Assembly (NCBI GenBank): GCA_041891055.1
Contig: CP169074.1
Coordinates: 992,001 to 1,056,000, forward strand
Length of the DNA: 64,000 bases
Direction: 5' to 3'
Source of the DNA: Halorutilales archaeon Cl-col2-1
GTDB lineage: Archaea; Halobacteriota; Halobacteria; Halobacteriales; Afararchaeaceae
Shown: piece after piece, positions 7,317-26,935 of the stretch
Position numbering within the stretch: position 1 is the first letter of the stretch
Layout of the letters: each line of letters opens with the position of its first letter
The notes under the pieces: model-generated
Databases searched by the model: none
Told to the model about the DNA's origin: nothing
What the model saw: only the letters and a program-made list of their open reading frames with translations
Program-made: the position numbers and the translations under genes

Positions 7317-7336
7317 TCCGAGACGGCGATCCGTCT

Positions 7337-8799: not shown

Positions 8800-8915
8800 A
8801 TCGCGGGTTGTCGGATTCAACCCCGAGGTCAAGTCAAGGAAAATCTTTGATTTTCCGTATCCCAAAAAGCTCTGCTTTTTGAAGACCCCGGGGCATTCTC
8901 CTTGTACCTCTGTAA
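8800..8915. mobile_element. Isolated IS200/IS605-type end hairpin (non-autonomous remnant) carrying a 49-bp mini-element
   Basis: ccccgaggtcaag..accccggggcattctcc resembles haloarchaeal IS605 termini; interrupted at 8834-8882. Confidence 0.6.
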
Positions 8916-8938
8916 AGAATCCTCAGGATAGTGCAGCA

Positions 8939-10234
8939 TCACCACGTCAAGCCTTCGTATACGATGTCATCTCTGGGTTCGATGACTCGCCGTCCGTCGA
9001 CTACCACTTTCTGGTTCATCGCATCGAACTCGTCGTCAAGTGCCGCGAACTCGTCCCAGTCGGTGACGACTACTGCGGCGTCGGCGTCTTCGAGTGCGTC
9101 CTCAGCCGAGTCAGCGTAATCGATGTCGCCGAAACGCTCTCTCATGTTGTTGACTGCGACGGGATCGTATGCGACTACCTCTGTGTCTCTGTCTCTGTCT
9201 TTGAGACCCTCTATCACGGGTATCGCACGTGAGTTTCTTATGTCGTCTGTGCCCGGCTTGAAGGAGAGTCCCAGGACGGCGACTCTCTTATCCACAGGAT
9301 CTATATGTTTATCAAGTAGCTGGAGGAGACGTTTTGGCTGTTTATCGTTGACTTCGACGGCGGAATGTAGCAACGAGGGATCGTATCCTTTCTCCTCGGC
9401 GGCGGCGATGAGTGCCTTGACGTCCTTCGGGAAACAGCTACCTCCCCAGCCTACTCCACTTCTCAGAAACTCCGAGCTTATGCGATGATCGAGTCCTATA
9501 GCGTCGGCGACCTCGTAGGCGTCGACTCCGTACTCCTTACAGATGTTGCCGAGTTCGTTTATGAGACTGACCTTCGAGGCGAGGAAGGCGTTGTTGGCGT
9601 ACTTGATCATCTCCGCCTCTCTAACTCCCGTCTCAACTACTGGTACGTCGTCGTTGCGTTCTACGAGAGGATCAAAGACCCGTCTTAGCTTCTCGTTGTC
9701 TTGGTTCTGCCCGAGAACTATCTTGTCAGGATGTAGAAAGTCGTCTACTGCGGTGCCTTCACGTAGGAACTCGGGGTTCATCGCCACGCTGAATTCTTCT
9801 CCTTCTTCTTTGTCCGAATTTTCTTCTATGATCGGGGTGAGAACCTCCTCGGTCGTACCAGGCACTACGGTACTCTTGACTACGACTGTGTGGCTGTCAT
9901 CCTTATGTCCCAACGCCTCGCCGAGTGACTCCGCTCCCTTCTTCATGTAGGTTAGATCGATACTGCCATCGTCGTTCGACGGTGTGGGGAGAGCGAGAAA
10001 CGTCACCTCGGTGTCGTTGACGGTACTGTAATCCGTCGTCGCTGTGAGACGGTCGCCGCCGTGTTCGGCTATAAGCTCATCCAACTGAGGCTCGTGTATA
10101 GGTGCTTCTCCCGAGTTTATGCTCTCTACTACGTCTTCGTCTATGTCTATGTTCGTAACTTCGTGTCCGAGGTCGGCGAAACACGCTGCCACCGTCGTAC
10201 CCACGTAGCCGCTCCCTACGATGCTTATCTTCAT
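8939..10234 (-). CDS. aglM: UDP-glucose 6-dehydrogenase
   Basis: [24 protein letters not shown]. Confidence 0.95.
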
Positions 10235-10320
10235 TGTGTTGGAGTTAGAATGCTTCTGAATTAATCTTTCTCGTTATCTATAGAATATAGTCTGACTAAA
10301 TTTTGTCTCAAACCGTTAGT

Positions 10321-10770
10321 TCACTCCCAGAACGATCTGACACGAGAATCCAGTTCATCTATCACTAGAGTCAAAACCTCTCGCCAGTCATTCGAAAAAT
10401 CAGCATCCTCCCCGGGCTTCTCTGCTACTGGTGGTGGGTGAAAATGGTCTCTCGTGTTGTGGCTGTTGGGGTGTCTGTCCCATCGACACTCCCAAGTATT
10501 ATCGTTATTATGTTGCTCTCTGTAGTGGACATTAAAGTCGTCTGTCTTGTACCATCGAATCTGTATATATGCAGTTTGGATATGTGAGGGGAAGTATCCT
10601 AAGTTGTATTCAGCAATTACCGAGTTGGGTGATCCTTTGGGACGAACCTCGACATCGGAGAAACGCTCACTCCCTGAAAGATATCCTCCTATCCGATCAA
10701 GAACATCGGTGTCTATCGACGCCACGTCTTTATCGGTTAGTTCGTCATCGGACTGACCTCTGTCAGGCAT
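10321..10770 (-). CDS. Putative toxin-like partner (RWDRHPN..HFHPPP family)
   Basis: Overlaps the HTH gene; paralog at 12140. Confidence 0.7.
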   Translation of the reverse strand: MPDRGQSDDELTDKDVASIDTDVLDRIGGYLSGSERFSDVEVRPKGSPNSVIAEYNLGYFPSHIQTAYIQIRWYKTDDFNVHYREQHNNDNTWECRWDRHPNSHNTRDHFHPPPVAEKPGEDADFSNDWREVLTLVIDELDSRVRSFWE

Positions 10771-11344
10771 TTATACCAGTATCAGTATCAGTACCCAGAC
10801 CGCCGCTTGTTTTTTCTTCACGCAGTGCTGTCTCAAGCAGTTCAGCACGTTCTTCGAGAGTCTGCCACTCAGAAAGGTCGTCCCATAGATCCTCAACTGT
10901 AGCTGTTTCACTAGCTTCTTTTAACGAGACTTCTCCCGGTTCATCTTCTCCGAACCTTTCTCGGTACTCTCTGATTGAGTCGATGGTCTCTTTGAGTTCA
11001 TCTAGTATCTCTTCATCGGAGTGATGGCTTCGTATCTGTTCGACTTGACGCCAGCGGAGAAAGGACTCGTTTCTCTCGTACTGTGTTGGTCTGTTACTGT
11101 GTTTTCGTACCAATCCCAGATCAGCAAACCAGTCTAGGTAGTCTCGTGCTGTCTCTGTGTCACAGCCTGCATGTTCTGCAATACTTGAGACTTTTGTAGG
11201 CTCACGTACCTGCATTATAACATCCATCAGACGCTCCCTGGTTGATCCTCCTTCAAACATCTCTTCGGGATCCTCCCAGTTACTGAAGTCCGGCTTTTCA
11301 CCATCCGGTCTAGATCTATCCGATATGTCTGTCAAATCCCTCAT
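10763..11344 (-). CDS. wHTH + coiled-coil protein, putative antitoxin/regulator
   Basis: KVSSIAEHAGCDTETARDYL HTH; paralogs at 12603 and 52677. Confidence 0.8.
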   Translation of the reverse strand: MRDLTDISDRSRPDGEKPDFSNWEDPEEMFEGGSTRERLMDVIMQVREPTKVSSIAEHAGCDTETARDYLDWFADLGLVRKHSNRPTQYERNESFLRWRQVEQIRSHHSDEEILDELKETIDSIREYRERFGEDEPGEVSLKEASETATVEDLWDDLSEWQTLEERAELLETALREEKTSGGLGTDTDTGINA

Positions 11345-11428
11345 AGATACCTTTACAGGTTAGACTGTAATATATCTACTGGGGGCTGTATTATTTCAGA
11401 GTATGGGTAGAAGAGTAAGTCTGCAGAT

Positions 11429-11514
11429 CTAGAATCTCCGCCAGTCCTGAACCTGTATGCCGTCTATCCTCTCGAAATGGGACACGTTTGGTGTCAAGAC
11501 TATGAGCTGGTTCA
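11429..11514 (-). pseudogene. VapC PIN toxin C-terminal remnant
   Basis: LIVLTPNVSHFERIDGIQVQDW resembles the end of vapC at 59150; the rest is deleted. Confidence 0.7.
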
Positions 11515-11730
11515 CTAACCCTGTTGCTCCGAAGCTTCTTCACTGAGTTTGCCTATGTCTTCTTTAACGTCTCTGTAAATCTCTTCATCTAGTACTCTTT
11601 GACCCGCAACGTCGGAGATAATACTTCCTTCTTCGATCTTCTCATCGATCACCTCGCTGAAGCTCTTACCGTCTTTCTCTCTACTGAGTTTCTCGTATAC
11701 TTCGTCCGAGATGGAGATATTCTTGCTCAT
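11515..11730 (-). CDS. vapB: VapB-family (DUF217-like) antitoxin
   Basis: MSKNISISDEVYEKL..KSFSEVI. Confidence 0.85.
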   Translation of the reverse strand: MSKNISISDEVYEKLSREKDGKSFSEVIDEKIEEGSIISDVAGQRVLDEEIYRDVKEDIGKLSEEASEQQG

Positions 11731-11912
11731 AGAGTATGTATGGGTACTCGTAGTAAAATATTAGCTTGCACGTCTTCGCGATAACTGAGGAGAAACGTCA
11801 TACGACGACGAAGGAGTCCAAGATAAGTACGTAGTCTCATCGGACTCTGTGGTTAGCTATTTCACCACCCGCGGTCTTAATGGGTTGCTATATATTTTAT
11901 TCAACATAGAGA

Positions 11913-12104
11913 ATGGATGAAGAAGAGATTGAACTCATCTATATAGCACTTCAGCGTTACCAGGAGGGAGAGATAGGCATGTGTGACGCTGCGGATATCG
12001 CCGGAGTCAGCATCTTCGAGATCATGGCGGAGGCGAACGAACGTGGCATCCTCAGTAACTACGATGACGCAGACCTAGAATACGACGTAGAGTCACTCCT
12101 ATGA
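11913..12104 (+). CDS. UPF0175-like antitoxin (possibly 5'-truncated), followed by a PIN start remnant MTMKLLVD
   Basis: ALQRYQEGEIG..AADIAGVS; ATGA overlap with a short broken PIN start. Confidence 0.65.
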   Translation: MDEEEIELIYIALQRYQEGEIGMCDAADIAGVSIFEIMAEANERGILSNYDDADLEYDVESLL

Positions 12105-12139
12105 CTATGAAACTTCTCGTCGACGTGTATTACTCGTAC

Positions 12140-12592
12140 TTACGGAGGATTACCTTGATTAAGGAGAGAGAAGTCGTCCGCCTCCCACGCTTGACGCCAT
12201 AGCTGAATTACAGCCAGTGCAACTAACCTATCAGTCTCGACCTCAATACACGACTCCTCTGGATCACGTCGTTCTCCCTTCTGAGGAGACGGAGGATGAA
12301 AATGCTTCTCCGGAGAATGGTGATTTGGATGCCGGTCGTATCTGAAGTCGAACTCTCCCGGCTCCGTGTAGTGAAAGTTGAAGTAGTTACGTGTACTCCA
12401 TCTGACATCGAACCTGCCCGGCTTCTCGAATCCATCTTCAAAATATACCTGTAGTTCATGCGGGTCAAACTCGTCTAACTGAGCCTCCTCAACTAACGGC
12501 TCATGGTTAACGAAAACATCACGTATTACCCTCAGCGAACTGACTTTGACTTCTCCGAACTCGCCTGTGTACTCCTCGTCAGTATCAGTCAT
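12140..12592 (-). CDS. Putative toxin-like partner (RYDRHPN..HFHPP family)
   Basis: Paralog of 10321..10770. Confidence 0.7.
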   Translation of the reverse strand: MTDTDEEYTGEFGEVKVSSLRVIRDVFVNHEPLVEEAQLDEFDPHELQVYFEDGFEKPGRFDVRWSTRNYFNFHYTEPGEFDFRYDRHPNHHSPEKHFHPPSPQKGERRDPEESCIEVETDRLVALAVIQLWRQAWEADDFSLLNQGNPP

Positions 12593-12602
12593 ACGAACTC
12601 TA

Positions 12603-13166
12603 TCAAGCTGTCGACTGTGTCCTCTCAGTGTCAGTACCTTCATCCGAGAACGTCAGAACCTGCTTGAACGCAAGAGCCGTCTTTGCTATAGCTAGATTCT
12701 CCCGCTTGGTTCTCCATTCTGAGACCACAGTCGGTATATCCATCTCGCCCTCATTCTCTCTCTCATCCATCTGAATTATGAGATCCTCGGGAGTCTCAAC
12801 CCCGTATTCTTCTCTGTATTCATGTATCTCGGATCTCATCTCCCTTATTCTGTCTTCTATCTCGTCTCTAGAGTAGGAGGAGCTGATATTTCTCACTCTC
12901 CTCATCTTCTCGGAGGACTCGTCCCATCTATAGAGCTTAGCACCTCCTCTCTCATCGATCTGTACCTCGTTCATCTCGTGAAGCCTACCGAGATACTTTC
13001 TCGCCGTGTTTGGGCTGACGTCAGCGGTTTCAGCTACCTGTTTTGCCTTCATCTTGTCACGACTGTTTCTAATCACGTCTCTGACTCTCTCGAATCCGTC
13101 TGTACTCTCTGACCATTCTCGTTTTACACGCTCGTTTATGTCCTCTGTGTCCTGTGGCATATACAT
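12603..13166 (-). CDS. wHTH + coiled-coil protein, putative antitoxin/regulator
   Basis: AKQVAETADVSPNTARKYL. Confidence 0.8.
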   Translation of the reverse strand: MYMPQDTEDINERVKREWSESTDGFERVRDVIRNSRDKMKAKQVAETADVSPNTARKYLGRLHEMNEVQIDERGGAKLYRWDESSEKMRRVRNISSSYSRDEIEDRIREMRSEIHEYREEYGVETPEDLIIQMDERENEGEMDIPTVVSEWRTKRENLAIAKTALAFKQVLTFSDEGTDTERTQSTA

Positions 13167-13310
13167 CTGATACTTACCGTGGACTCATATATTTTACTGA
13201 TACCTCATATGTTTGAATTATACGCGTTTATACGTAAGCACATAGAGGTATCGGAGAAAGGACAGAAACGAGAAGAAGATATTTACCTGTAGATCAACAA
13301 GTAAGTCAGC

Positions 13311-14060
13311 ATGAAAGCTGTCGTACTGGCTGGAGGCGAGGGCACACGTCTACGTCCTCTTACCGAAGATAAGCCTAAGGGTATGGTCGAAGTCGACGGT
13401 AAGCCTATTCTGACTCACTGTTTCAAACAACTATCCGATCTGGGTGCCGACGAGCTCGTGGTCGTTGTCGGATACATGAAAGAGAAGATCATCGACCACT
13501 ACGGAGACGACTTCGAAGGTATACCTATCACCTACACCCATCAGAGAGAGCAGAAGGGACTCGCTCACGCTCTTCTGACCGCCGAGAACCACATCGACGA
13601 CGACTTCATGCTGATGCTCGGCGACAATATCTTCAACGCCAACCTCGAAGACGTCGTCAAACGTCAGCGAGAGGATCGCGCCGACGCAGCCTTCTTGGTC
13701 GAGGAGGTGCCCTACGAAGAAGCATCACGGTACGGAGTCGCCGACACCAACAAGTACGGCGAGATAACCGACGTCATAGAGAAGCCTGAGGAGCCTCCTA
13801 CCAACCTCGTGATGACGGGCTTCTACACCTTCTCTCCCGCGATCTTTCACGCCTGTCATCTCGTTCAGCCGTCGAACCGCGGTGAGTACGAGATAAGTGA
13901 AGCTATAGACCTACTCATCAAGAGCGGACGGACGATAGATGCTATCGGCTTAGAGGGCTGGCGAGTCGACATCGGCTATCCCGAGGATCGCGACGAAGCA
14001 GAAAGACGTCTGAGTGACGACCAGGATATCGAAGACGACGTCGAGACTGCCGAAAGCTAA
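13311..14060 (+). CDS. aglF: Glucose-1-phosphate uridylyltransferase
   Basis: LAGGEGTRLRPLTEDKPK; matches the haloarchaeal AglF pattern. Confidence 0.9.
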   Translation: MKAVVLAGGEGTRLRPLTEDKPKGMVEVDGKPILTHCFKQLSDLGADELVVVVGYMKEKIIDHYGDDFEGIPITYTHQREQKGLAHALLTAENHIDDDFMLMLGDNIFNANLEDVVKRQREDRADAAFLVEEVPYEEASRYGVADTNKYGEITDVIEKPEEPPTNLVMTGFYTFSPAIFHACHLVQPSNRGEYEISEAIDLLIKSGRTIDAIGLEGWRVDIGYPEDRDEAERRLSDDQDIEDDVETAES

Positions 14061-14111
14061 GGCTGAGGCTTCTCGGCAGATTTTTAGTAGACTCTTGATA
14101 ACTTAGACAAA

Positions 14112-15098
14112 ATGAGCATACTCGTAACAGGAGGGGCGGGCTTCATTGGGGGACATCTCGCCGAGACCTTCGTCGAAGAGGGTCACGATGTCGTAGCTAT
14201 AGACAACTTCGATCCCTACTACAGCGTAGGTCTCAAGAGACACAACGTCGACTGTGCGCGTTCTGCGGCTGAGGAGAGTGACGGCACGTACGAGTTAGTA
14301 GAGGGCGACATCCGTGACGAGAAAGTCATCTCCGAGTTAGTCGAGGACGCCGACTACGTCTTTCACGAGGCGGCACAGGCAGGCGTACGTACGAGCGTCG
14401 AGAATCCACAGAAGGTCAACAGCATAAACGAGGGAGGTCTTCTCAATATACTCGAAGCCGCGAAGGACTCCGAGACTGGGCGTGTCGTAGTGGCGAGTTC
14501 GTCGTCTGTCTACGGCAAGCCAGAGTATCTGCCCTACGATGAGGAGCATCCCAAGAGTCCTGTGAGTCCGTACGGAGTCTCGAAGCTGGCTTCAGAGAAC
14601 TACACGCGTGTCTACAACGAGTTACACGGGCTCTCGACCGTCGTCATACGTCCCTTCACAGTCTACGGTCCACGTATGCGTCCCAACATGGCTATAACCA
14701 ACTTCGTCTCACGGTGTATCAACGGCAAGTCGCCGGTCGTCTACGGAGACGGCGAACAGACACGTGACTTCACGTATATCGAGGACATAGTCGACGCCCA
14801 CCGCACTCTTCTTGATACTGACGAAGCAGACGGCGAGGTCATGAATATCGGCAGTACTGACAATATCTCGATAAACGAGCTCGCGAGGGAGATACGGGAT
14901 GAGATAGATCCCGACCTCGACATCGAGTACGACGAGAGACACGACGCCGACGCCGAACACACCCACGCCGACATCTCGAAGGCTAAGAATCTTATAGGCT
15001 ACGAGCCGAATACGGAGATACGTGAAGGCGTCTCGGAGTTCGTCGACTGGTACCGCGACAACAGAGACTGGTACGAGACCCTAGTTCTGGAGTCTTAA
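14112..15098 (+). CDS. NAD-dependent nucleotide-sugar epimerase/dehydratase
   Basis: TGGAGFIG, SSSSVYG, YGVSK. Confidence 0.92.
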   Translation: MSILVTGGAGFIGGHLAETFVEEGHDVVAIDNFDPYYSVGLKRHNVDCARSAAEESDGTYELVEGDIRDEKVISELVEDADYVFHEAAQAGVRTSVENPQKVNSINEGGLLNILEAAKDSETGRVVVASSSSVYGKPEYLPYDEEHPKSPVSPYGVSKLASENYTRVYNELHGLSTVVIRPFTVYGPRMRPNMAITNFVSRCINGKSPVVYGDGEQTRDFTYIEDIVDAHRTLLDTDEADGEVMNIGSTDNISINELAREIRDEIDPDLDIEYDERHDADAEHTHADISKAKNLIGYEPNTEIREGVSEFVDWYRDNRDWYETLVLES

Positions 15099-15114
15099 AG
15101 TGTCACTCCCTTTG

Positions 15115-16509
15115 CTATGAAGAAGCTGAGAATATCTGATCTAGCTTTTCTATGTCGACCAGTGTCCATGTCTCCCCAGCCTCATCGAGGAGGTCTCGAG
15201 TGAAACCACTCTTCGAGAAGAGTACGTACTCCTCGTGACGCTCGTTGTTGTGCCATCTGACCTCGTCTGACTTGTTCTCTAAGTCACGCATGAGGTCGGT
15301 ATCCACCTTACTCTCTGTCCATTTACATTCACAGAAGACAGTACTCTTACTCTCCGGGTTGAGTCCGACGATATCGATCTCATATTCCTTGTACCACCAC
15401 TTACCCATCTTCGAGTAACTGTCTCGAAGCATACCTTGCCTGTTCATCTTCCACAGAGCCTCCGTGCATACCTCTTCGTATGTTTTGGAGACAAACCTAT
15501 CAAGCCGAGGCTGTATGTTGTTCTCAAGTACGAGTTCGGGGGACTCCTCTATGCCTGATCTGTTTGGCTCTATGAACCTAAACCAGAAACGTAAGAAGCT
15601 GTCTTTTATTTTATAGATAGATCTCTTCGATTTTTTCTTGTCTGCGGTCACCGGTACGACCCTTTCGATCAGGCGGATACGTCTAAGCTTCTGTAAATAG
15701 TTGGACAACGGACCAGAACCGATATCCGTCTGACCTGAAATCTCGTTAGGAGTCGTATGTCCGTTAGCGATCGCTTCCAATATACTCATGTACCTCGATG
15801 GGTTTCTGAGTTCTGTGCGTAGCAAGAACTCCGGCTCATTATACAGTACAGAGTTCTTCGAGAGATGGTTTTCAAGGAGATTCTGGCTAAGTGAGTTCTC
15901 GTAGTCGAAGAGCTGTAGGTACATAGGTGTCCCTCCCGTAGTAGAGTAAGACCGTACTGCGTCAACCATACTGTAGTCGATAATACTGAGTGAGTCTGAG
16001 AAGCTGAACGGCTTGAGATCAATCTGGGCGGTTCGCCTCCCGTAGAGTGGACTCTTGTGTCCCATGACGTCCGACTCCATGACACTGATAGACGAACCAC
16101 ATAAGATTAACATCGAGTCCATGTCTTCTGAGTTCTCGTCTATAACAGACTGAAGGCTCGAAAGAACCGAGCTGTCTGATCCTATCAGATACGGGAGTTC
16201 GTCAATAGCGAGTACTATCTTTTCCTCGGAGAGTTTCTCGCCTACGTAATCTATGGCATCGCTCCAGCTCTCGGTTCGGGGGACACGCTCGTTGAAGTAG
16301 TCGACTATGTCTTCTATGAGCTTCTCTCTCTGTAGCTTCTCGGAGTCCTGGGAGACTAGGTGGTATATATGAGGTTTGTCCTCGCAGAACTTCTTGATGA
16401 GCTCCGTCTTTCCAACGCGTCTTCTACCATATAGAACTACAAAACTGAATCCATCCGAACTGTATTCCTCTTCGAGTGTTCTGAGTTCAGAGTTCCTGTT
16501 GTGAAACAT
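15115..16509 (-). CDS. Archaeal ATPase + wHTH + DUF234 protein (second paralog)
   Basis: MFHNR, YGRRRVGKT, IDEL, EIDIV..CECKW. Confidence 0.9.
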   Translation of the reverse strand: MFHNRNSELRTLEEEYSSDGFSFVVLYGRRRVGKTELIKKFCEDKPHIYHLVSQDSEKLQREKLIEDIVDYFNERVPRTESWSDAIDYVGEKLSEEKIVLAIDELPYLIGSDSSVLSSLQSVIDENSEDMDSMLILCGSSISVMESDVMGHKSPLYGRRTAQIDLKPFSFSDSLSIIDYSMVDAVRSYSTTGGTPMYLQLFDYENSLSQNLLENHLSKNSVLYNEPEFLLRTELRNPSRYMSILEAIANGHTTPNEISGQTDIGSGPLSNYLQKLRRIRLIERVVPVTADKKKSKRSIYKIKDSFLRFWFRFIEPNRSGIEESPELVLENNIQPRLDRFVSKTYEEVCTEALWKMNRQGMLRDSYSKMGKWWYKEYEIDIVGLNPESKSTVFCECKWTESKVDTDLMRDLENKSDEVRWHNNERHEEYVLFSKSGFTRDLLDEAGETWTLVDIEKLDQIFSASS

Positions 16510-16510
16510 T

Positions 16511-16539
16511 ATTATCGTAATAATCATTATCGTGATAAT
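16511..16539. promoter_or_regulatory. Tandem palindromic operator-like boxes
   Basis: attatcgtaataat-c-attatcgtgataat directly upstream of ATG 16509. Confidence 0.55.
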
Positions 16540-16633
16540 GATATATAGAGGTTAGGCTTAGCTTCGAGACAAGGTGGCTAACTACGAGGTTTGACCGGAT
16601 CCATCACCTCTGGGAGTAGAAGGGAGAAAATAC

Positions 16634-16987
16634 TTAGCTAACTCCGAGGCTGAGTTTCAGAGCATCATCGATCTCCGACATCGTGGACGAGTCGAGGCTA
16701 CCGACCACCGACTCGATACGGCTTTCTACCGACACAGTCCGTATCTGATCGAGACGTACCGACGAGTCCTTCTCGAAAGGAGAACCCGACGCCTCGACAA
16801 AGACCTCGAAGGGATACTCCCTGTATGTACCTGTCGCAGGGGCGACGATAGTAGTACTCGAGTTTCTGTTACCCACGTCATTCTGTACGACCACGGCAGG
16901 ACATGTCTTTTTCATCTCGTTGCCCTCAGCAGGATCGAGACGAACTATAACAACATCACCTCTCCTTATCTCTATGTCGTCGCTCAT
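16634..16987 (-). CDS. mazF: PemK/MazF toxin with catalytic Arg changed to Cys
   Basis: RRGDV..LDPAEGNEMKKTCPAVVVQND; family consensus has RP. Confidence 0.88.
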   Translation of the reverse strand: MSDDIEIRRGDVVIVRLDPAEGNEMKKTCPAVVVQNDVGNRNSSTTIVAPATGTYREYPFEVFVEASGSPFEKDSSVRLDQIRTVSVESRIESVVGSLDSSTMSEIDDALKLSLGVS

Positions 16988-17217
16988 TCTTCGAGACTTT
17001 CCCACGCTTCGTCCGAAGTCTCAGTCCACTCCTCAGCAATACTCTCCGCAGTGTCAGAGGCATCTCGGTACGCCGACGCAAGATATTCCTCGTCGACGTC
17101 TGACTCGACCTCGACGATAGCAACAGTCACACGTTTGTTGGCGTACTCAGTCCCCAGATATAGCCTACCTCTGTCGTCCGTCTCGTTTGTCTGGAGTTCG
17201 TCTGCATCTACTTCCAT
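16984..17217 (-). CDS. Antitoxin of the MazF pair
   Basis: ETDDRGRLYLG swapped-hairpin-like N-terminus, acidic tail, ATGA overlap. Confidence 0.75.
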   Translation of the reverse strand: MEVDADELQTNETDDRGRLYLGTEYANKRVTVAIVEVESDVDEEYLASAYRDASDTAESIAEEWTETSDEAWESLEE

Positions 17218-17791: not shown

Positions 17792-17792
17792 G

Positions 17793-18058: not shown

Positions 18059-19189
18059 ATGAAAATACTCCGAGTCGCACAGAACCTGTATCCCGAGGTG
18101 CCCGGGGGAGGTACGTACCATGTCCACGCTATGAGTCGTGATCAGGCGGAGATGGGACACGACGTGACCGTTCTTACTGTCTCGGATATTCATCAATCTT
18201 CGATTGATGAGCCTGCGGATCAAAGATTAACAGACGACGACAGTCTGCCTCGCCGAGAGGAGAGAGATGGGTATACAGTCGTACGTAGAAAGCCGACTGT
18301 CGGGGTCATAGGCAACGAGATATCAACTGGTGTTGGGAAGTTTCTACGTGATGCGTCGGGATTCGACGTGATTCACGCACACTCGCATCTGTACTTTTCT
18401 ACTAACTTAGCCGCGGTGAAACGCCGTCTCGGGGACATACCTCTGGCGATCACCAACCACGGACTCTACTCACAGAGCGCGCCCGAGTGGGTCTTCGACC
18501 TCTATCTGCGTACTGTGGGTCGGTGGACGTTTAACACGGCTGACGTCGTCTTCTGTTATACAGACGAGGACAGAAACAGGGTTCGGGAGTTCGGCGTCAA
18601 CTCACGTATAGAGGTCGTGCCAAACGGAGTCGACACCGAGCGGTTTACTCCTTCAGGTGAAGAGAGCGATCTCATCGATACTGACTCGGAGGTCGTCCTG
18701 TTTGTGGGTCGTCTAGTAGAGGGTAAACGTCCACAGGACGCCGTCGAAGCCGTCTCACGTCTCTCCGAGAGTAGGGATATCGAACTGTATGTCGTCGGAG
18801 ACGGCCCTATGCGTGACGATCTAGAGGAGACCGCAGACGAGAACGTGAGTTTTCTGGGGCAGGTGCCCTACGACGAGATGCCACGTGTCTATCGGTCGGG
18901 TGACGTTCTGATACTGCCTAGCCGTGCCGAGGGTCTGCCACGGACTGTTCTAGAGGCATTTTCGTCGGGGATTCCGGTCGTGTCGAGTCATCTGGAGCAT
19001 ACTGCTTCTATCGTGCAAGAAGGTGGTGAGACAGTCGAGGTCGGGGATGTTGAGGGTTATAGAGAGGCTCTGGAGAGTGTGTTGTCTGAGAAGGATAAGC
19101 TTGGTGTGAGAGGACGTGAGACCGTAGTCGACGGATTTCGATGGCAGGACACAGTCGAGGAGACGACAGATGTGCTCAAACAGATATGA
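18059..19189 (+). CDS. GT4 glycosyltransferase carrying a 16-codon in-frame mini-element insertion
   Basis: FVGRL..K, EGLPRTVLEA; insertion at 18189-18234. Confidence 0.93.
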   Translation: MKILRVAQNLYPEVPGGGTYHVHAMSRDQAEMGHDVTVLTVSDIHQSSIDEPADQRLTDDDSLPRREERDGYTVVRRKPTVGVIGNEISTGVGKFLRDASGFDVIHAHSHLYFSTNLAAVKRRLGDIPLAITNHGLYSQSAPEWVFDLYLRTVGRWTFNTADVVFCYTDEDRNRVREFGVNSRIEVVPNGVDTERFTPSGEESDLIDTDSEVVLFVGRLVEGKRPQDAVEAVSRLSESRDIELYVVGDGPMRDDLEETADENVSFLGQVPYDEMPRVYRSGDVLILPSRAEGLPRTVLEAFSSGIPVVSSHLEHTASIVQEGGETVEVGDVEGYREALESVLSEKDKLGVRGRETVVDGFRWQDTVEETTDVLKQI

Positions 19190-19201
19190 TTCACCAAAGC
19201 C
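19188..19201. mobile_element. Orphan IS5-family terminal inverted repeat
   Basis: gattcaccaaagcc is the exact reverse complement of 23999-24012. Confidence 0.65.
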
Positions 19202-19275
19202 GACTTAACAGGCTCACGACTACTAATTCCGGTAGCAACAAAAACCATAAGACGCACACACACGTCTACACAGAT

Positions 19276-19548
19276 ATGTCACTGAACCTGGGCGATGCCG
19301 TTCGGAATTCTCTTCTATATCGGGCAGTGTCACAGTTTCTGATCTGGTCAAAGCATAGTAAGATGGCACGTCTGCTTGGGAACGAAAGGGTTCTTGCCGC
19401 GATTATCGCTATCGGATTACTGGGAAGTATCTTCAGAGTCCTGAGTTCGGGTATGCAGGCTCCGGTCAAATTCTTGAGTTTCGCGCTGCTTTTTGTCATA
19501 ACCGTCGCGTTGACGTGGAACTACACCGAGCCACTCACGGACGAGTAA
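19276..19548 (+). CDS. Small two-TM membrane protein
   Basis: 90 aa from ATG 19276 with two hydrophobic helices. Confidence 0.55.
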   Translation: MSLNLGDAVRNSLLYRAVSQFLIWSKHSKMARLLGNERVLAAIIAIGLLGSIFRVLSSGMQAPVKFLSFALLFVITVALTWNYTEPLTDE

Positions 19549-20673: not shown

Positions 20674-20722
20674 ATGTTATTTTTGTGGGCATTCATATGC
20701 AGTCTAGTATTAATAAAATGTA

Positions 20723-21844
20723 TCATGGACTATCTTTGGATAATTGTCTGTAAATTTGAGTATATGAGTCCGACATGGTTTTCACATCGAAGTACTCCTT
20801 AGCACGCTCGTAACCCGCTTTTCCGTATTGGTTTTGCACCTCATTTTCGGCGATCTCATTTATAGCTTCAAGGAGACTATCGACGCGACCCAGAGGGTAG
20901 AGTATTCCTGTTTCACTGTCGTGTACTGCTTCTCTCACGCCTGGTATATCTGGAGCAACGACAGGCAATGATGCAGCCATCGCTTCAAGGATTGTTATTG
21001 GATGGCCCTCCGCTTTGGATCCAGACACAAAAGCATCAGCTGCTGCATAGTATGGGTGCACCTCAGGAACACGACCAGTAATATGGACAGTGTCCTGAAC
21101 ACCATGAGATTTAACTTCAGATCGGAGTTCCTTTTCAAGTTCCCCATGGCCCACGATGATAAGATGAGCATCCGTCTTACTCTGAGCAAAAGCATCGATG
21201 AGGTTCGACTGTCCTTTGACTGGTACATAACGACCGACATTGAGAAATATCGGTGTTTCCTGATCAATGTTGAGTTGCTCCCGGATATTAACGCCATCCG
21301 ATATTTTAACCTTTTGAGCGAATTTCTCAACATTGATGCCATTATATACTGTACACCAGTCGTCATCAAGCTCACCAGGTTCATGGGCGCTCCCAGTAAA
21401 TGCTCGTTCAACTCCCTGGGAAACTGCCACTGTCTTATCATCCAAAGAGCGTGTCAATCTCTCGGTTGTACGGGTCACAGGGTGATAGTTCGATGGGACA
21501 TTATGTTGAGTACTAACGATACGAACATCATTCATTGACCCAATGAGCCGTCCAAGAGTCTGTGCATACGGGAGATGAAGATGAAGAATGTCTATCTGCT
21601 TTTCACGAAGGTAGCTGTTGAATCGTTTTACAGCACGAGGGTCAAACCGAAACTCCTCACCAAAATGTCGAACTGGTACGCCTGCCTCTTCTATTTCTGG
21701 TACTAGGGCATCTTCGTCACCAAAAAATCCAACACTGAATTGAATTCGATCACTGGCACTGACGAGGTCACGAACCATATTCTCAGCACCCCCATACGGG
21801 AGGGCAGTAATTAATTGACAGACAGATATATCTTTAGCCATCAA
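20723..21844 (-). CDS. GT4 glycosyltransferase
   Basis: GGAE, NVGRY..KG, EGHPITILEAMA. Confidence 0.93.
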   Translation of the reverse strand: MMAKDISVCQLITALPYGGAENMVRDLVSASDRIQFSVGFFGDEDALVPEIEEAGVPVRHFGEEFRFDPRAVKRFNSYLREKQIDILHLHLPYAQTLGRLIGSMNDVRIVSTQHNVPSNYHPVTRTTERLTRSLDDKTVAVSQGVERAFTGSAHEPGELDDDWCTVYNGINVEKFAQKVKISDGVNIREQLNIDQETPIFLNVGRYVPVKGQSNLIDAFAQSKTDAHLIIVGHGELEKELRSEVKSHGVQDTVHITGRVPEVHPYYAAADAFVSGSKAEGHPITILEAMAASLPVVAPDIPGVREAVHDSETGILYPLGRVDSLLEAINEIAENEVQNQYGKAGYERAKEYFDVKTMSDSYTQIYRQLSKDSP

Positions 21845-21922
21845 TCATTGGTCTTCAACAAAGTATTTAAATGAATCGACATCGTGCAATTCATTAGACG
21901 AAAGAGAATACCTCTTAATCAG

Positions 21923-22849
21923 ATGAGTGTGATTTCACTATCCAGAATTGGACGAGGGCTCGAAAGCCCCAATTTGTTCCTCCGCGAATTAAATAGATTC
22001 TATTACAAACAGTTATATACTCAATCGTATAACACGGGCGGCATCGATATCTTTGAACAGGACTGGGACAACCTCATAGTCTTAGATGCCTGCAGATACG
22101 ATCTGTTTGAGAATACAGCTGATCTCGAAGGTCAGCTCGAATCTCGTATTTCACGTGCATCAAGTACGCCTGAGTGGCTCAGAGCAAATTTTAAAGGACG
22201 TAAGCTGCACGACACAGTATATATTACAGCAAATCCACAGCTTTTCCGACACAGAGAGGAAATAGATGTGGAATTTCACGATGTAATCAATATCTGGCAG
22301 GAGGACGGCTGGGATGAAGAGCATCAAACGGTACTTCCAGAAACGGTTACAAAGAGAAGTATTGAAGCAGCAGACAAGTACCCCAATAAAAGATTGCTCA
22401 TCCATTATATTCAGCCGCACTACCCATTCCTGACGAGTATTGATCAACCGTTTGAGGATAGCCAGGCGTTTCTAAAGCCAGATGAAGCTGGAAGCTGGCA
22501 TCAGGCAGTGATTGGAAAAATTGACCCAGACCCAGAGATTGTGTGGCAGGCATATCGCGATACACTAGAAAGGGCGCTCCCGCATGTTGAAGAGCTGGTT
22601 CAGGGTATAACTGGTAAATCAGTAGTTACTGCAGACCACGGGAATATGGTCGGCGAACGTGCTACTCCATTTCCCATTCGGGAGTGGGGTCACCCACGTG
22701 GGATTTATACTGATGAGCTGGTGAAAGTTCCGTGGCTTGTGATCGAAGGAGAGAGTCGAAAGATTACTGCCAGAAAGCCAGTCGAAAGTACAAATAGTGT
22801 CACGGATAAAGTTGTACAGGATCGACTCGAGAAGTTAGGATATACATGA
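21923..22849 (+). CDS. Sulfatase-like / alkaline-phosphatase superfamily protein
   Basis: LDACRYD, QPHYPF, TADHG, LVKVPW, RLEKLGY. Confidence 0.85.
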   Translation: MSVISLSRIGRGLESPNLFLRELNRFYYKQLYTQSYNTGGIDIFEQDWDNLIVLDACRYDLFENTADLEGQLESRISRASSTPEWLRANFKGRKLHDTVYITANPQLFRHREEIDVEFHDVINIWQEDGWDEEHQTVLPETVTKRSIEAADKYPNKRLLIHYIQPHYPFLTSIDQPFEDSQAFLKPDEAGSWHQAVIGKIDPDPEIVWQAYRDTLERALPHVEELVQGITGKSVVTADHGNMVGERATPFPIREWGHPRGIYTDELVKVPWLVIEGESRKITARKPVESTNSVTDKVVQDRLEKLGYT

Positions 22850-23985
22850 GTGGTATTGTTTTCGTAACTGTTGTTGATCTTTCAATCATTTCTGGAAGTG
22901 GAGTCGCCACACGTGAGATTATTCGAGGGATAGTCAGTGTAACAGATGAGCCGGTCATTGTTCTCTGCCCGGAGCCTAAAGAGAAGCTACCGGAGATGCT
23001 TGAAAGTCAGGTTGATGAGTTCATTTACTTACCAACGAGAACAAACCCTGGATCACCACGCTGGCACCTCAAAACCGAGTTCAGTATACTACGCAAATTG
23101 GGAAGGCTTTATAAAAATAGAGTCCCTTCACTTGTTGTAACTCGTTTATCGCCTTCTACTCTATTCCCAGCACTGTTTTCTACTATTTTCAATATCCCCC
23201 ATATATTGTTAATTAGGGGATGGGTTCGGAGAAAAGACAGCAGAGAAGATACAAAATTTGGATCACTCGTCGAACAATTAGTAAAAATGAATGTTCGCCT
23301 CTCAGACGAAGTCTACGTTGCGTTTGACGAACTCAAGGAGTGGGTAGATCCATATCGTAGCAACTCCAAGTCACCCGTGAAAGTGTTACCGAACGCAGTC
23401 GATCCTGATATTTTTTCGCCACAACCTCTCAGCTCTACCCGTGCTAAGATTGGAATTGATGCAGAAAAGTTTGTTGTTGGTTTTGTTGGATCGTTAGCTC
23501 CGCGTCATGAACTCAAGACATTATTCAGGGCCGCGGCAAAAACCGATGATGTTTATCTATTGATTGTTGGTGATGGTGTACGCCGGAACAGCCTTGATCA
23601 ACTTGCAGCTGACCTTGGGATCGATGACCGTGTGACGTTTACTGGTCAAGTCGATCATGAAGAAGTCCCAAAATACATCTCTTCTTTCGACGTCGGCTAT
23701 GGAGTTGTGAGCTCAGATAAAGCATCAAATCCAATTAAGTGTTATGAGTATCTATCATGCGAAAGACCAGTTATAACAAGCCAGAAAGAAGAATTTGAGT
23801 TTATTTCAAAAATAGACGCAGGCGTGCTAGTAAGTACTGTGTCAACTAAGGAAGTGTATGAGGCTATCGAATATTTGCGGAACCAGCCACGGAAGGAACG
23901 GCTTGAAATGGGAAAGACTGGTCGTTCGTATGTACAGGAACACTTTACTTGGAAACGCTTGGCTAACGAGCTTATCATAATATGA
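22846..23985 (+). CDS. GT4 glycosyltransferase
   Basis: PNAVD, GFVGSL, NPIKCYEYL. Confidence 0.9.
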   Translation: MSGIVFVTVVDLSIISGSGVATREIIRGIVSVTDEPVIVLCPEPKEKLPEMLESQVDEFIYLPTRTNPGSPRWHLKTEFSILRKLGRLYKNRVPSLVVTRLSPSTLFPALFSTIFNIPHILLIRGWVRRKDSREDTKFGSLVEQLVKMNVRLSDEVYVAFDELKEWVDPYRSNSKSPVKVLPNAVDPDIFSPQPLSSTRAKIGIDAEKFVVGFVGSLAPRHELKTLFRAAAKTDDVYLLIVGDGVRRNSLDQLAADLGIDDRVTFTGQVDHEEVPKYISSFDVGYGVVSSDKASNPIKCYEYLSCERPVITSQKEEFEFISKIDAGVLVSTVSTKEVYEAIEYLRNQPRKERLEMGKTGRSYVQEHFTWKRLANELIII

Positions 23986-23998
23986 TATATCAATTTTT

Positions 23999-24679
23999 GG
24001 CTTTGGTGAATCGCCATACGCAGCTTGATTTACTGTTTTATGGCATGTTTGATGTTATAGACAGAGCAGATCAGGACGAGTTCACGAAACTCCCTGTACC
24101 AGGCACGCGCACGCACGGCTTCACGAAGCACAGCTTCGTTAGCTGAAAATCTTCGATTTTAAGCTGTGCCGAGCGTGCGCTTGATGTTTGAGAAGACGGT
24201 TTCAGACAGGATATTTGACCGTAGAGAGACCCATCGATTCTGGTGTCGCAAATCTGAGATTTGCGTACATCCAAAAATCAGAGATTTTTGAATATGCTGT
24301 GCACCTGATCGATGGGTCGGAACTCACGGTGTTTGGTGAGTGGTGCTTCTCGGTAGGATTTCTCCAAGTAAATCCGTAGACAGTGGAGAGAAACGATGGC
24401 GTGAATCCGCGAAGCCGCCACCCTGCTCTGGGGCGGCGACTTCGCTCCGACCACCGACATCATGAACTCCATTCATGAACCTCAAAGCTCCACTTTGAGA
24501 CAGCGTTTTTAGCTAATGTCAAGGCTCTATCAGTGAAGTGCTGTGAATCGAAGATTCACATGCGTTGGGACGCTTGCGTTCCAAAACGGGAGATTTTGGA
24601 CATGTCATCGAAAACTTCCCGCTTCATCTCCTTTGCATTAGTGGCTTAATCCAACGTAGTCTAGTGATTCACCAGAGCC
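23999..24679 (-). mobile_element. Internally deleted IS5-family (ISH1/ISH9-like) element with four mini-element insertions
   Basis: 14-bp TIRs ggctttggtgaatc/gattcaccagagcc; remnant peptides MSKIS, TLAKNAVGG, LHCLRIYLEKSYREA, KHREFRPID, ETVFSNIKRTLG, RAWYREFRELVL. Confidence 0.9.
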
Positions 24680-24747
24680 CTATCAATAGCTCTAGGAAGG
24701 ACATCTGCCCGGTTGTAAGTTGGAATTACAACACTGACCGTGACCAT
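24680..24747 (-). pseudogene. GT2 glycosyltransferase N-terminus truncated by the IS5 element
   Basis: MVTVSVVIPTYNRADVLPRAID abuts the TIR. Confidence 0.8.
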
Positions 24748-25209
24748 ATTAATTTTGAATTCAGTATCAGAGGACATGAAAATGTTGGTTCACTCATCGG
24801 CGTTCTAAGAAAAAAGATCAATCCCAAATACTCTCACATCTCCGAGGTCTAAGTGAGTACGAGTTTGAATTAACTATCATTGGGGACGGGGGACTTAAGC
24901 CGATCCTTAGACAAGAGTTTGAGAACCGGAATCTCTCTTCACACGTGAGTTTCAGAGGATTCGTGTCCAACGATCTACTCCCTGAAGTCTATGCGAGTCA
25001 TGACCTCTTTCTTTATCCGGGTATCTGGGACGAGCCGTTTGGCAGGGTCTTTATAGAGTCACTCGCAACAGGCACTCCCGTAGTCTCCACGGATATCGGT
25101 TCGACCGAAGAGATCTTAGGAGACGCTGGTGTTACGGTGGAGCCAGACGTCGACAGGTTAGCCGAGGCAGTTCACCTAATTGCGAGGCGGAGGCCACGTC
25201 CTCAAGGAG

Positions 25210-25310
25210 TCATTCGAGAATCGAAGATTCTCGTGATCGAGCGAATCAAGGATTTGCGAGTCTTCAGAAATCTTCGATTTCTGTGATGCAGAAAACTCTA
25301 AGAGTTTTCC
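25210..25310. repeat. Two tandem double-hairpin mini-elements (25210-25258, 25261-25310) with AG duplications
   Basis: [ag]unit[ag]unit[ag] inside the IS left-end hairpin. Confidence 0.8.
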
Positions 25311-25451
25311 AGCACAAGCGAATCGAAGATTCGCATACGCAGTAGGGCGGGGAAGAGCCGACAACGCCGCAACCCAACACAGGCAATAGCATCCTGACTC
25401 CCGAACAAACCAAATTTTTATAAAAAAGATAGTTCAATATGTGAAATAGAG

Positions 25452-26762
25452 ATGGAGGTCATTCGCACGGTCAAGGTCAAACTCGACGTGCCTGACCAGC
25501 GACGGGACGACCTTCATCAGACCGCCGACCAGTTCCGCTACTGCGCCAATCAGACCAGTGAGTGGGCGTGGCGCGACTCCTCGGACGAATACTGCGTCAC
25601 CAGCAAAGCGAAAGCCGAAGACGCTCTCTACGACCGTCTTCGAGACGAAACCGACCTCACCGCCAATCTCGTCCAGAAAGGGATTCGGCGGGCTATTGAG
25701 GCAGTCAAAAGCGGTGTCGAAGCGTGGAAACGAGGTGACCGCACCAGCCAACCACACTTCGATGCGTGGAGCATCGTTTATGACAAGCGAAGCGCCACCT
25801 TCCACCGCGACCGTGTGTCCCTCTCGACCGTGGATGGACGAGTCGAATGCGAGTACGTCCTACCCGACAACACGGAGGGGACGCCGATTGGTGACTACCT
25901 ACTGAACAAGAACTTCGAGTTCCGAATGTCCACGCTCCAGTACGACCGCTTCGAGGACGAGTTCTACCTCCACGCCCGCATGAGACACACCCCAGAAAAT
26001 GGCGAAGAAGAGCGTTCAAGTTCGGACACGCACAGTGAGAACCCGACGGTTCTCGGCGTGGACTTGAACGTTGACGGCTACTTCGCCGTCACCAGCACGG
26101 GTGCGTTCATCGAATCAGCGGACTACCTCAACCACCGTCGGCGTGAGTTCGAGCAGACCCGTGGAAGCCTCCAAGAGACAGGCACACGGTCGGCGCATCT
26201 GACCATCCAGCAGATGAGCGACCGCGAACACCGCTGGATACAGGACGTACTCCACTCGGTTGCGAACGACATTCTCCGCGAAGCTCGTCGGGTGGACGCG
26301 ACTCATATCGCGTTCGAGAACCTGACGGGTATCCGTGACCGCATGGTGAACGCCAAGCGATTCCACGCGTGGGCGTTCCGCCAACTCTACGAGTACGTCG
26401 AGTACAAAGGTGAAGCCGAAGGCGTGACTGTCGAACAAGTGAGTCCTGCGTACACGAGTCAGCGGTGTTCGAAGTGCGGATGTACGCTGGAGGAGAATCG
26501 CCCGTCGAAACACGAGTTCTGCTGTCAGAAGTGCGGGTACGAACTCAACGCCGACTACAACGCGAGCAAGAACATCGCTCGCAAACTCGCCAAGGGTCTC
26601 CGCTCGGGGCAAAAGTCTCCGAGTGGAGGAGCCACCTATCAACTGGCTCTAACGTCGGGGACGCTGAACCTGAACGGCGATTTCCACGCCTCCGACCGTG
26701 TGTCGGCAGAAGGGGAGTCCACCGACAAACCCCATCGTGAACGAAAGTTCACGAGCCTCTGA
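25452..26762 (+). CDS. tnpB: TnpB RNA-guided nuclease
   Basis: RuvC GVDLN / AFENL / NADYNA; zinc finger CSKC..CQKC. Confidence 0.95.
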   Translation: MEVIRTVKVKLDVPDQRRDDLHQTADQFRYCANQTSEWAWRDSSDEYCVTSKAKAEDALYDRLRDETDLTANLVQKGIRRAIEAVKSGVEAWKRGDRTSQPHFDAWSIVYDKRSATFHRDRVSLSTVDGRVECEYVLPDNTEGTPIGDYLLNKNFEFRMSTLQYDRFEDEFYLHARMRHTPENGEEERSSSDTHSENPTVLGVDLNVDGYFAVTSTGAFIESADYLNHRRREFEQTRGSLQETGTRSAHLTIQQMSDREHRWIQDVLHSVANDILREARRVDATHIAFENLTGIRDRMVNAKRFHAWAFRQLYEYVEYKGEAEGVTVEQVSPAYTSQRCSKCGCTLEENRPSKHEFCCQKCGYELNADYNASKNIARKLAKGLRSGQKSPSGGATYQLALTSGTLNLNGDFHASDRVSAEGESTDKPHRERKFTSL

Positions 26763-26935
26763 GGTTCCCTCAGAGACATCACAAATCGTAGATTTGCGAG
26801 CAGTCAGAAGCTCTGCTTCTGACGACACCCTCAACGAGCGTTCGGAAATCTCTGATTTCCGAGCCATCAAACTCGTAGAGTTTGAGACGTTCGCGAATCT
26901 TCGATTCGCGTGCCTGTAAATCAAAGATTTACAGA
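26735..26935. repeat. Four double-hairpin mini-elements in two tandem pairs
   Basis: [ca]26735-26776[ca]26779-26825[ca] and [cg]26841-26887[cg]26890-26935[cg]. Confidence 0.85.

Follow-up and report, generated by a model that had tools for sequence, protein, structure and literature searches.

Mobile-looking repeats only tens of bases long, such as the cyanobacterial SDR and the palindromic elements of Methanocaldococcus jannaschii, nest within repeats or lie in frame within genes. Bacterial hosts are those named in one paper for the REP, BIME, and REPIN sequences and their Y1/HUH transposase RAYT, a group that includes the CGTC-tagged REPs and the Rickettsia elements RPE-4 and RPE-6 (Di Nocera 2013, PMC3733652). 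Among the haloarchaea, the SMR-A repeats (HqIRS42, 43, and 55) of Haloquadratum walsbyi are described as transposase-free, and their mode of movement is called enigmatic (Dyall-Smith 2011, PMC3119063). PATE palindromes are those of the ends of IS605-type elements and have an 8-bp stem and a TTCA loop (PMC3119063, PMC4615843). Here we examine a 64,000-nucleotide stretch of the genome of Halorutilales archaeon Cl-col2-1 (contig CP169074.1, positions 992,001 to 1,056,000; hereafter the window), in which a preliminary description had reported 12 short inserts, each composed of two stem-loops. We propose, at a probability of roughly 0.55, that these inserts (units) are copies of a class-wide, non-coding family of miniature mobile elements of the Halobacteria, with two hairpins in each copy.

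The units have much in common with REPs, which are likewise short hairpin repeats whose stems are heterogeneous while pairing is kept, and which are usually paired, often lie inside palindromes, sometimes sit in frame in genes, and are presumed to be mobilized in trans as single-stranded DNA (PMC3733652). CGTC-tagged REPs may offer a further likeness in that the bottom strand of the second hairpin begins with CGTC in units of the CG type; the CGTC-type REPs are described as having no dedicated transposase (PMC3733652). REPs bear a conserved tetranucleotide, GTAG or CGTC, as a tag at one end. When this tag was tested, CG-type units were found to carry CG plus TT at one end and CG plus TC on the other strand, whereas AG- and CA-type units do not; such a tag would include the dinucleotide that is supplied by the target as well. 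There are also differences. The REP families described in the same text have loops of 4 to 5 nt or more, compared with 3 nt in the units, and no flanking dinucleotide repeat is mentioned there for REPs (PMC3733652). Inverted partners of a REPIN fold together, whereas the two hairpins of a unit differ from each other and fold separately in all 12 window units.

Like the units, SMR-A repeats are haloarchaeal and strongly prefer near-terminal palindromes of IS605-type elements (and, for SMR-A, of PATEs), but they are reported to have a length of about 110 bp, twice that of a single unit, with prominent terminal inverted repeats and no target duplication (PMC3119063). Compared by description only, two units placed head to head, as in the 113 bp of the pair at haloarchaeal locus L073, would look like SMR-A. 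A scan of the Hqr. walsbyi plasmid PL47 yielded no unit-like hairpin pairs. PATEs are also tiny, non-coding, hairpin-bearing, and tied to IS200/IS605 elements, and 52-bp forms exist; however, PATEs are described as lacking a flank repeat and as having a 4- to 6-nt target on one side, whereas the units repeat a dinucleotide at 18 of 25 sites (PMC3119063, PMC4615843). The left flanks of the units show at most a loose likeness to the unit 3′ end and no fixed 4- to 6-nt target. Moreover, the stems and 3-nt loops of the units differ from IS605-type ends, and the units insert into those very palindromes. We exclude identity with PATEs: neither in the sequence of their stems nor in the length of their loops do the units match the left- and right-end hairpins of their host elements. 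A 2-bp flank repeat is also found in MITEs (miniature transposable elements with inverted repeats) of the IS630/Tc1 or IS30 type, from which the units differ in having terminal inverted repeats of only 2 to 3 nt, no parent element seen, and a repeat that is never TA. The SDR and M. jannaschii elements belong to different taxa and have different architectures. In the literature outside subscription journals and ISfinder, we found no description of 41- to 57-bp double-hairpin elements with a dinucleotide repeat in haloarchaea. The units are best read as REP-like, structure-recognized elements that are mobilized in trans and are probably handled as folded single-stranded DNA.

Results

Twelve double-hairpin units in the window

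Perfect hairpins whose stem is 8 bp or longer and whose loop is 3 nt number 17 across the 64-kb window, compared with a mean of 1.13 (SD 1.24, maximum 5) in 100 dinucleotide-preserving shuffles. The 12 reported units account for 15 of the 17, the remaining two being at positions 57191 and 62420, and on this basis the inserts are real. Every unit folds as single-stranded DNA into the two stem-loops that had been ascribed to it. For 10 units, none of 200 shuffles matched the native fold; the corresponding counts were 7 of 200 for 18189–18234 and 8 of 200 for 25210–25258.

The ends and flanks of the units were also as first described. GA is present at the end of one strand or the other in 11 of the 12 units (24541–24586 is the exception), and the fuller form of this signature pairs GA with TC or TTC at the opposite end (TC...GA or TTC...GA). 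An identical dinucleotide flanks 10 of the units, the exceptions being 24541–24586 (TG/CG) and 18189–18234 (TA/CG, no repeat), and at three sites two units stand in tandem, separated by the dinucleotide they share. The linker between hairpins usually contains GCC, many stems have AATC-loop-GATT in common, and two pairs of units at unrelated sites (units 2 and 12, and units 5 and 9) are clearly related. The features are given below with their strand, left/right flanking dinucleotides, fold z score, and, where obtained, the E value from covariance model R1, which is described in a later section.

8834–8882, plus strand: unit 1; AG/AG; z −5.6; E 3.5e-10; in the loop of a terminator-like host palindrome (about 8823–8893) downstream of a UDP-glucose dehydrogenase gene.
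18189–18234, plus strand: unit 2; TA/CG; z −2.2; E 1.4e-3; second hairpin degraded; in frame in an intact GT4 glycosyltransferase gene (18059–19189).
24121–24163, minus strand: unit 3; CT/CT on the plus strand (AG in the GA-ending orientation); z −3.5; in the loop of a host palindrome within the IS5 remnant.
24246–24294, plus strand: unit 4; TG/TG; z −5.8; E 8e-9; within the IS5 remnant, flanked by the two arms of an 11-bp inverted repeat of the host.
24460–24500, plus strand: unit 5; CA/CA; z −6.8; missed by the model at E ≤0.01; in the IS5 remnant; a C-A mismatch adjoins the loop in both hairpins.
24541–24586, minus strand: unit 6; TG/CG; z −3.8; partial model match; within the IS5 remnant, close to the transposase gene's 5′ end.
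25210–25258, plus strand: unit 7; AG/AG; z −1.7; E 6e-3; first of a tandem pair at the left end of the TnpB element.
25261–25310, plus strand: unit 8; AG/AG; z −4.7; E 2e-7 on the minus strand and 3.9e-5 on the plus strand, not a seed member of the model; second of the same pair.
26735–26776, plus strand: unit 9; CA/CA; z −6.5; missed by the model; first unit of a tandem pair; cuts into tnpB at its 3′ end.
26779–26825, plus strand: unit 10; CA/CA; E 2e-9; the stem of its second hairpin is that of the unit at the same site in Halorubrum locus L055.
26841–26887, plus strand: unit 11; CG/CG; z −5.6; E 2.7e-5, not a seed member; first unit of a tandem pair, within the TnpB element's right-end region.
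26890–26935, plus strand: unit 12; CG/CG; z −6.9; E 2.7e-6; same subfamily as unit 2, with identical loops and the same linker type.
23996–24660 (approximate), minus strand: IS5-family (ISH19/ISH28-like) remnant with four units and an internal deletion, delimited by blastn against plasmids and by alignment.
25176–26978 (approximate), plus strand: IS1341-type (TnpB-only) IS200/IS605 element carrying six units, its ends placed by comparison with loci L001 and L002.

Related copies lack the units

Clean empty sites occur in related copies for 9 of the 12 units, which is every unit that could be tested. The claim that removal of a unit plus its duplication restores the host sequence was correct for all three hosts that could be compared, namely the IS5 remnant, the right end of the TnpB element, and the GT4 protein. 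The relatives with the best tnpB identity to the window element (89%), from Haloglomus and Halobellus (L001 and L002), have a right end that runs uninterrupted across the sites of units 9 to 12; the dinucleotides at the CA position and at CG are present once each, and there is a single base difference. Two plasmid IS5 copies likewise align without interruption across the sites of units 3 to 6, and the empty site of unit 6 holds a single CG. In the GT4 glycosyltransferase, a 16-residue in-frame insert corresponds to unit 2 plus two bases and is absent from all six aligned homologues (72–78% identity). No comparator was found for unit 1, and at units 7 and 8 the left ends of relatives align only loosely. 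All nine units that could be compared cleanly are insertions.

A family of related units in haloarchaea

With the window TnpB protein as query, we fetched 77 haloarchaeal loci, and a hairpin scan of these revealed the same double-hairpin architecture in many genera. Covariance model R1 was then built from 17 units, four of them from the window, with unit boundaries set by the analyst. Run on the window without filters, the model recovered five further reported units at E ≤0.01 and missed those at 24460, 24541, and 26735, and it returned no unit outside the 12 reported sites at that threshold. The wider scan with such a model, as the preliminary description had suggested, gave matches at 25 places in 18 of the 77 loci, which represent Halorubrum, Haloferax, Haloplanus, Halogranum, Halogeometricum, Halapricum, Natronorubrum, Natronocalculus, and two uncultured Halobacteriales. 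Unit length across the family is 41 to 57 bp.

When a 59-base query representing one subfamily was compared with plasmids by blastn, it matched 82 places in 58 records, all of whose listed genera are haloarchaeal. Identity over the 59 bases is 80–100%, reaching 100% in pHV3 of Haloferax volcanii DS2, and pHME132 of Hfx. mediterranei is also among the plasmids matched; under nearly all of the listed matches there is no annotation. Blastn gave no match between the commonest subfamily and phage records, nor between window units 11 and 12 and plasmids. What ties the window units to the family is the model, the sharing of stems (as between unit 10 and the unit of Halorubrum), and the related pairs at unrelated sites. 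One subfamily is found in at least four unrelated target contexts. As for density, there are 12 units in the 64-kb window and 8 in the 132-kb plasmid pHME132; REPs number tens to hundreds per genome.

Several double hairpins were missed by R1, namely those at 18286–18339 in L049, 16667–16716 and 16757–16810 in L071, 11272–11317 in L072, and 8005–8055 in L064. These have other stems (of the CGAAAGGCGC and CGAGAGAGC types) and some have 5-nt loops. The family is probably broader than the model. Separately, a tnpB fragment 73% identical to the haloarchaeal query lies at 10001–10579 of L065, near one end of an 881-kb contig of a metagenome-assembled genome assigned to a Balneolaceae bacterium; it could reflect a cross-domain transfer or an artefact of binning or assembly.

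Pairing is conserved and loops are biased

To follow changes in the stems, we used an alignment (A9) of 44 model matches from about 33 places, which is fitted to the model and holds some units on both strands. In this alignment, 94.8% of cells pair, compared with 71.0 ± 1.1% in column shuffles, and 190 cells are changed on both sides, compared with 64.9 ± 7.6; none of 500 shuffles reaches either value. Seventeen of the 19 pairs show changes on both sides, and the pairs are almost all Watson-Crick, with few G-T pairs. Sliding the pairing partner by one to three columns destroys the covariation signal. The earlier statement that structure rather than sequence is conserved stands insofar as pairing covaries. 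It does not hold for the sequence being free, given the shared AATC-loop-GATT, the GCC linker, and the near-identical stems that whole subfamilies keep in other genomes.

Loops were compared in a set of 62 closed by perfect stems, drawn from 37 units and including copies related by descent. GNA or its complement TNC accounts for 28 of the 62, where one in eight is expected (P 2e-10), and RNA/TNY in degenerate code (R, purine; Y, pyrimidine) for 50 of the 62 (P 6e-20); random loops are ruled out by this strong bias. GNA triloops closed by a C-G pair form unusually stable DNA minihairpins, and the loop bias therefore favours folded DNA over RNA.

A site within tnpB allowed the rates of change to be compared. 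Five genes carry the same unit there, in frame and at the same codon position, and three relatives are empty. The five genes are 83–89% identical overall and 69–78% identical at third codon positions, whereas the non-loop part of the unit has a single change among the five copies. Its two loops agree in only 14 of 60 pairwise comparisons (hand count). Copies at the same site can have loops that are reverse complements of each other, both here and at the left-end site described below. Such flipping makes up some of the divergence between loops, so that loops do change more than neutral sites, but by a modest margin. A compensated stem change is seen in one of the left-end copies. Stems, linker, and ends are thus either strongly constrained or repeatedly renewed.

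Just downstream of this tnpB-internal site, about 600 nt into the gene, a stretch of about 40 bases (alignment columns ~146–190) is near-invariant in all eight copies compared (L009, L011, L018, L029, L062, L016, L044, and L046), third positions included, and contains an inverted repeat with an 8-bp stem and a 12-nt spacer. This observation suggests a conserved DNA or RNA structure within the gene.

Units insert into palindromes and at the ends of other units

The flanking dinucleotide is identical at 18 of 25 delimited sites. It is mostly CG, is CA/TG or AG/CT at others, and is never TA as a repeat. Of 22 rebuilt sites, 6 have a perfect inverted repeat of at least 8 bp across the junction (in one of these, a neighbouring unit contributes its end to the repeat), compared with 4.4% of 4,000 random positions (P 3e-4). 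The IS5 palindrome around unit 3 has 8 perfectly paired bp and is longer if one mismatch is allowed. In IS1341-type elements of Halorubrum and Haloplanus, the 3′ arm of the left-end hairpin is filled in four copies and empty in seven that align clearly, and a wider set contains 17 contiguous empty left ends. Other palindromic targets are the left-end hairpin of a Halogranum element and a small intergenic palindrome in pHME132. In pHV3 of Hfx. volcanii, a unit lies at the junction of the 5′ arm and loop of the ISHvo18 right-end hairpin, which it splits.

Model matches are concentrated near tnpB, with 15 of the 25 places falling within the gene ± 300 bp, or 11% of the locus sequence (P 5e-9, for copies that are not independent and loci that were chosen for tnpB). 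A complete IS605 element of Hfx. prahovense with intact tnpA and tnpB open reading frames (ORFs) contains two units.

Stacking is most evident in an IS6-family transposase gene, where 0, 1, 2, and 3 units at one CG make up an allelic series. Empty relatives are found in Hfx. gibbonsii and Halogeometricum, and of the pHME132 copies one has a single unit, one has two, and two have three. In the three-unit stacks the middle unit is inverted, and every junction is CG. These stacks, the tandem pairs of the window, and the head-to-head pair of L073 indicate that unit ends are good targets. The annotated IS6 genes of pHME132 (L083, 7227–7865; L084, 10852–11490) start inside or just after the stacked units and are N-terminally shortened relative to those of Hfx. 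gibbonsii and Halogeometricum.

The distribution of filled left ends does not follow the tnpB tree in a simple manner. The four filled elements are not one clade, since constraining them to be so costs 101 log-likelihood units (P of the approximately unbiased test, p-AU, 5e-12); the tree requires four changes, and it includes a strongly supported sister pair of one empty and one filled copy. This pattern could result from repeated insertion at one site, from seamless loss, or from recombination of left ends between elements. At the tnpB-internal site, placing the five filled copies in one clade gave a marginal p-AU of 0.022 for a group that was named after the first tree, and no conclusion is drawn from it. 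For the left-end context shared by L046 and L073, no empty copy was found among the loci, and the unit may be native to that context.

Discussion

How the units may move

The filled and empty alleles, the unrelated contexts, and the covariation uphold the earlier view of a non-autonomous, structure-recognized mobile unit. That the units are a mobile element we state with considerable confidence; that they are recognized as a single-strand structure is probable; and a Y1 enzyme as the mover is a tentative suggestion. With regard to the alternatives first offered for their nature, the REP-like one fits better than the RNA-derived one, given the Watson-Crick pairs, GNA/TNC loops, and both orientations.

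The data show that each insertion adds one unit and one dinucleotide, which comes to stand on both sides. Existing palindromes are the preferred places, whether the insertion falls within or next to them; among these are the hairpins at the ends of IS200/IS605 (TnpA/TnpB) elements, palindromes that lie within IS5 and IS6 genes, the terminator-like hairpin, and the ends of resident units, the last of these building up the stacks spaced by a shared dinucleotide. Within a subfamily, stems, linker, and ends are conserved while the 3-nt loops drift and flip. The unit would be read as folded single-stranded DNA and not as sequence. Cutting and rejoining would be performed by an enzyme acting in trans, most likely an HUH/Y1-type single-strand transposase such as an IS200-type TnpA or a RAYT-like relative. 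The mobilizing enzyme does not appear to be encoded in the window, as had been supposed: Pfam searches of its 68 ORFs yielded no transposase or recombinase other than two TnpB genes (the IS5 remnant was found by DNA similarity).

The 2-bp repeat may not be a true target duplication, and the right-hand copy may be part of the element. Under this proposal, the right-hand dinucleotide would be the element's own cleavage site and the left-hand one that of the target. Such ownership would explain the repeat itself, head-to-tail stacking, and seamless loss and empty sites. It would also explain why several left flanks resemble the unit 3′ end, and why related units share a dinucleotide at unrelated sites (CA for units 5 and 9, and a right-hand CG for units 2 and 12, of which unit 2 has TA on the left).

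Several observations weigh against a class-wide family of mobile elements moved in this manner. Y1 transposases of the IS200/IS605 type are not known to produce a 2-bp repeat. Pfam searches of 82 of 189 ORFs near units in the loci, together with the 68 window ORFs, revealed no RAYT-like gene and no gene flanked by units; Y1_Tnp genes were seen only in L046 and L080, where they are the ordinary tnpA genes of IS605. Neither the window nor the plasmids contain near-identical copies of the window units, so there is no sign of recent movement here. The counts given above include copies related by descent, and the covariation alignment has the limits already stated. At the tnpB-internal site, the well-supported branches allow a single origin. 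Finally, the units occur in both orientations relative to the host element.

A further possibility, which we regard as unlikely, is that the units are hairpin-seeking hyperparasites of insertion sequences that use a structure-specific strand-transfer activity not yet described in archaea, with SMR-A being dimers of the same element. Any stable pair of minihairpins might then be recognized, cut at the adjoining dinucleotide, and joined into the loop or foot of another hairpin, and the transposase-binding hairpins of IS200/IS605 (TnpB) elements would be split across the class Halobacteria.

Other explanations

A serious rival, to which we give a low probability, is that the units are ordinary double-stranded MITEs whose mover is a DDE transposase cutting with a 2-bp stagger, as in IS630/Tc1- or IS30-like elements, with the palindromes serving as binding sites for protein dimers. 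Palindromic hot spots and its own ends are favoured targets of IS30, which also gives rise to tandem ends spaced by 2 bp, and the exact 2-bp repeat at 18 of 25 sites, the stacks spaced by exactly that dinucleotide, the palindromic targets, and loops or spacers of free sequence and fixed length would all be accommodated. A protein that reads sequence would not, however, tolerate stems that are nearly wholly different within one window while pairing is kept. The unit ends have no more than TC...GA in common, the small sample formed by the window and loci contained no insertion sequence whose ends match, the repeat is never TA, and the empty sites are seamless, with no footprints. Somewhat less probable still is that the units are PATEs, that is, fused left- and right-end hairpins forming minimal IS200/IS605 derivatives moved by the TnpA of the elements in which they sit. 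Two hairpins in about 50 bp and the strong association with IS200/IS605 elements suit this account, as do the terminal-only 52-bp PATEs of Haloquadratum (PMC3119063) and the reported frequency, among haloarchaea, of left ends fused to right ends (PMC4615843). Yet the host end hairpins are unrelated in sequence and have longer loops (an 8-bp stem with a TTCA loop, and a CCCGCG stem with an 8-nt loop), and the units interrupt these hairpins and do not resemble them. Units also reside in IS5, in IS6, and in a glycosyltransferase gene, and the 52-bp PATEs, as described, keep one palindrome and have no target duplication (PMC3119063).

The units might instead be functional motifs selected by the host and not purely selfish, for example a device that disables insertion sequences by splitting transposase-binding hairpins, a role proposed for the Haloquadratum SMR-A repeats (PMC3119063). 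Repeated placement in the hairpins at either end of IS200/IS605 elements and within the transposase genes of IS5 and IS6, and conservation of stems and linker far beyond that of third codon positions, agree with such a role; but it is a statement of benefit and not a mechanism, enrichment in insertion sequences may reflect tolerance, and some carrier elements keep intact tnpA and tnpB ORFs. We consider it improbable. There is very little likelihood that the units are immobile filler from local snap-back or template switching during replication or break repair. Their palindromes are near-perfect, and the loop flips are of a kind that template switching yields, but this origin is contradicted by the presence of the same unit in 58 plasmid records, many genera, and unrelated flanks, and by linkers and ends that are conserved and not flank-derived. 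Copying of the stems from the flanks was rejected, as the same stems are found in unrelated flanks, and a closed dumbbell whose ends complement the linker was also rejected, as the ends do not match the linker. Equally remote is the idea, for which there is no direct evidence, that reverse transcription of a small structured RNA gave rise to the units as inserted DNA copies. Rfam gave nothing at gathering score in the window and, for 24000–27100, only two weak matches at chance level (E 0.64 and 1.6). The pairs are almost all Watson-Crick with few G-U equivalents, and the 3-nt loops, the fixed 2-nt flank repeat, the lack of a tail, and the occurrence of both orientations speak against such copies as well.

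Implications

If the units are indeed mobile elements of the class, then the Halobacteria, including the models Hfx. volcanii and Hfx. mediterranei, carry an unannotated family that ranks among the smallest mobile elements known. Its members break or remodel genes, as with the 16-residue glycosyltransferase insert, the cut 3′ end of tnpB, and the interrupted IS5 and IS6 transposase genes, and preferentially split hairpins needed by IS200/IS605 transposases. The family would thus bear on the control of TnpB elements, on the unexplained small mobile repeats of Haloquadratum, and on genome annotation, and it offers a system that can be tested in a genetically tractable archaeon. This REP/SMR-like miniature element is widespread and apparently unannotated, and its link to the control of TnpB elements is testable.

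Genomic setting of the window

The tnpB ORF of the IS1341-type element (25452–26762) terminates inside unit 9 and encodes Pfam domains Cas12f1-like_TNB and OrfB_IS605. The element itself appears to be inserted after TTCAC in a GT4 glycosyltransferase gene (24945–25175), the 3′ part of which seems to resume at 26979–27100. On its upstream side this gene ends abruptly at the IS5 remnant, so the region is a nested stack of mobile elements. One additional hairpin lies just after unit 8.

25318–25334, strand not assigned: single hairpin with a 7-bp stem and a GAA loop; partial model match, E 0.86.

This hairpin may be a solo half-unit or may belong to the TnpB element's left end; in L001 and L002 the homologous stretch forms no hairpin. 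A second TnpB gene (51050–52285, minus strand) has no double-hairpin unit according to the covariance model, and a hairpin with a 10-bp stem and a 4-nt loop lies inside it at 51949–51972.

The GC content of the window is 54–59% at its edges (1–8000 and 60000–64000), compared with 39–52% over 10000–56000. The low-GC stretch fits a horizontally acquired surface-glycan island, and the AT-rich stems of the window units are in line with its lower GC content. Three paralogous DUF7342 ORFs are present in the window (10763–11344, 12603–13166, and 52677–53183), and the glycosylation island holds two archaeal ATPase+DUF234 genes (7337–8791 and 15115–16527) and an ORF for a MazF/PemK-like toxin (16634–17005).

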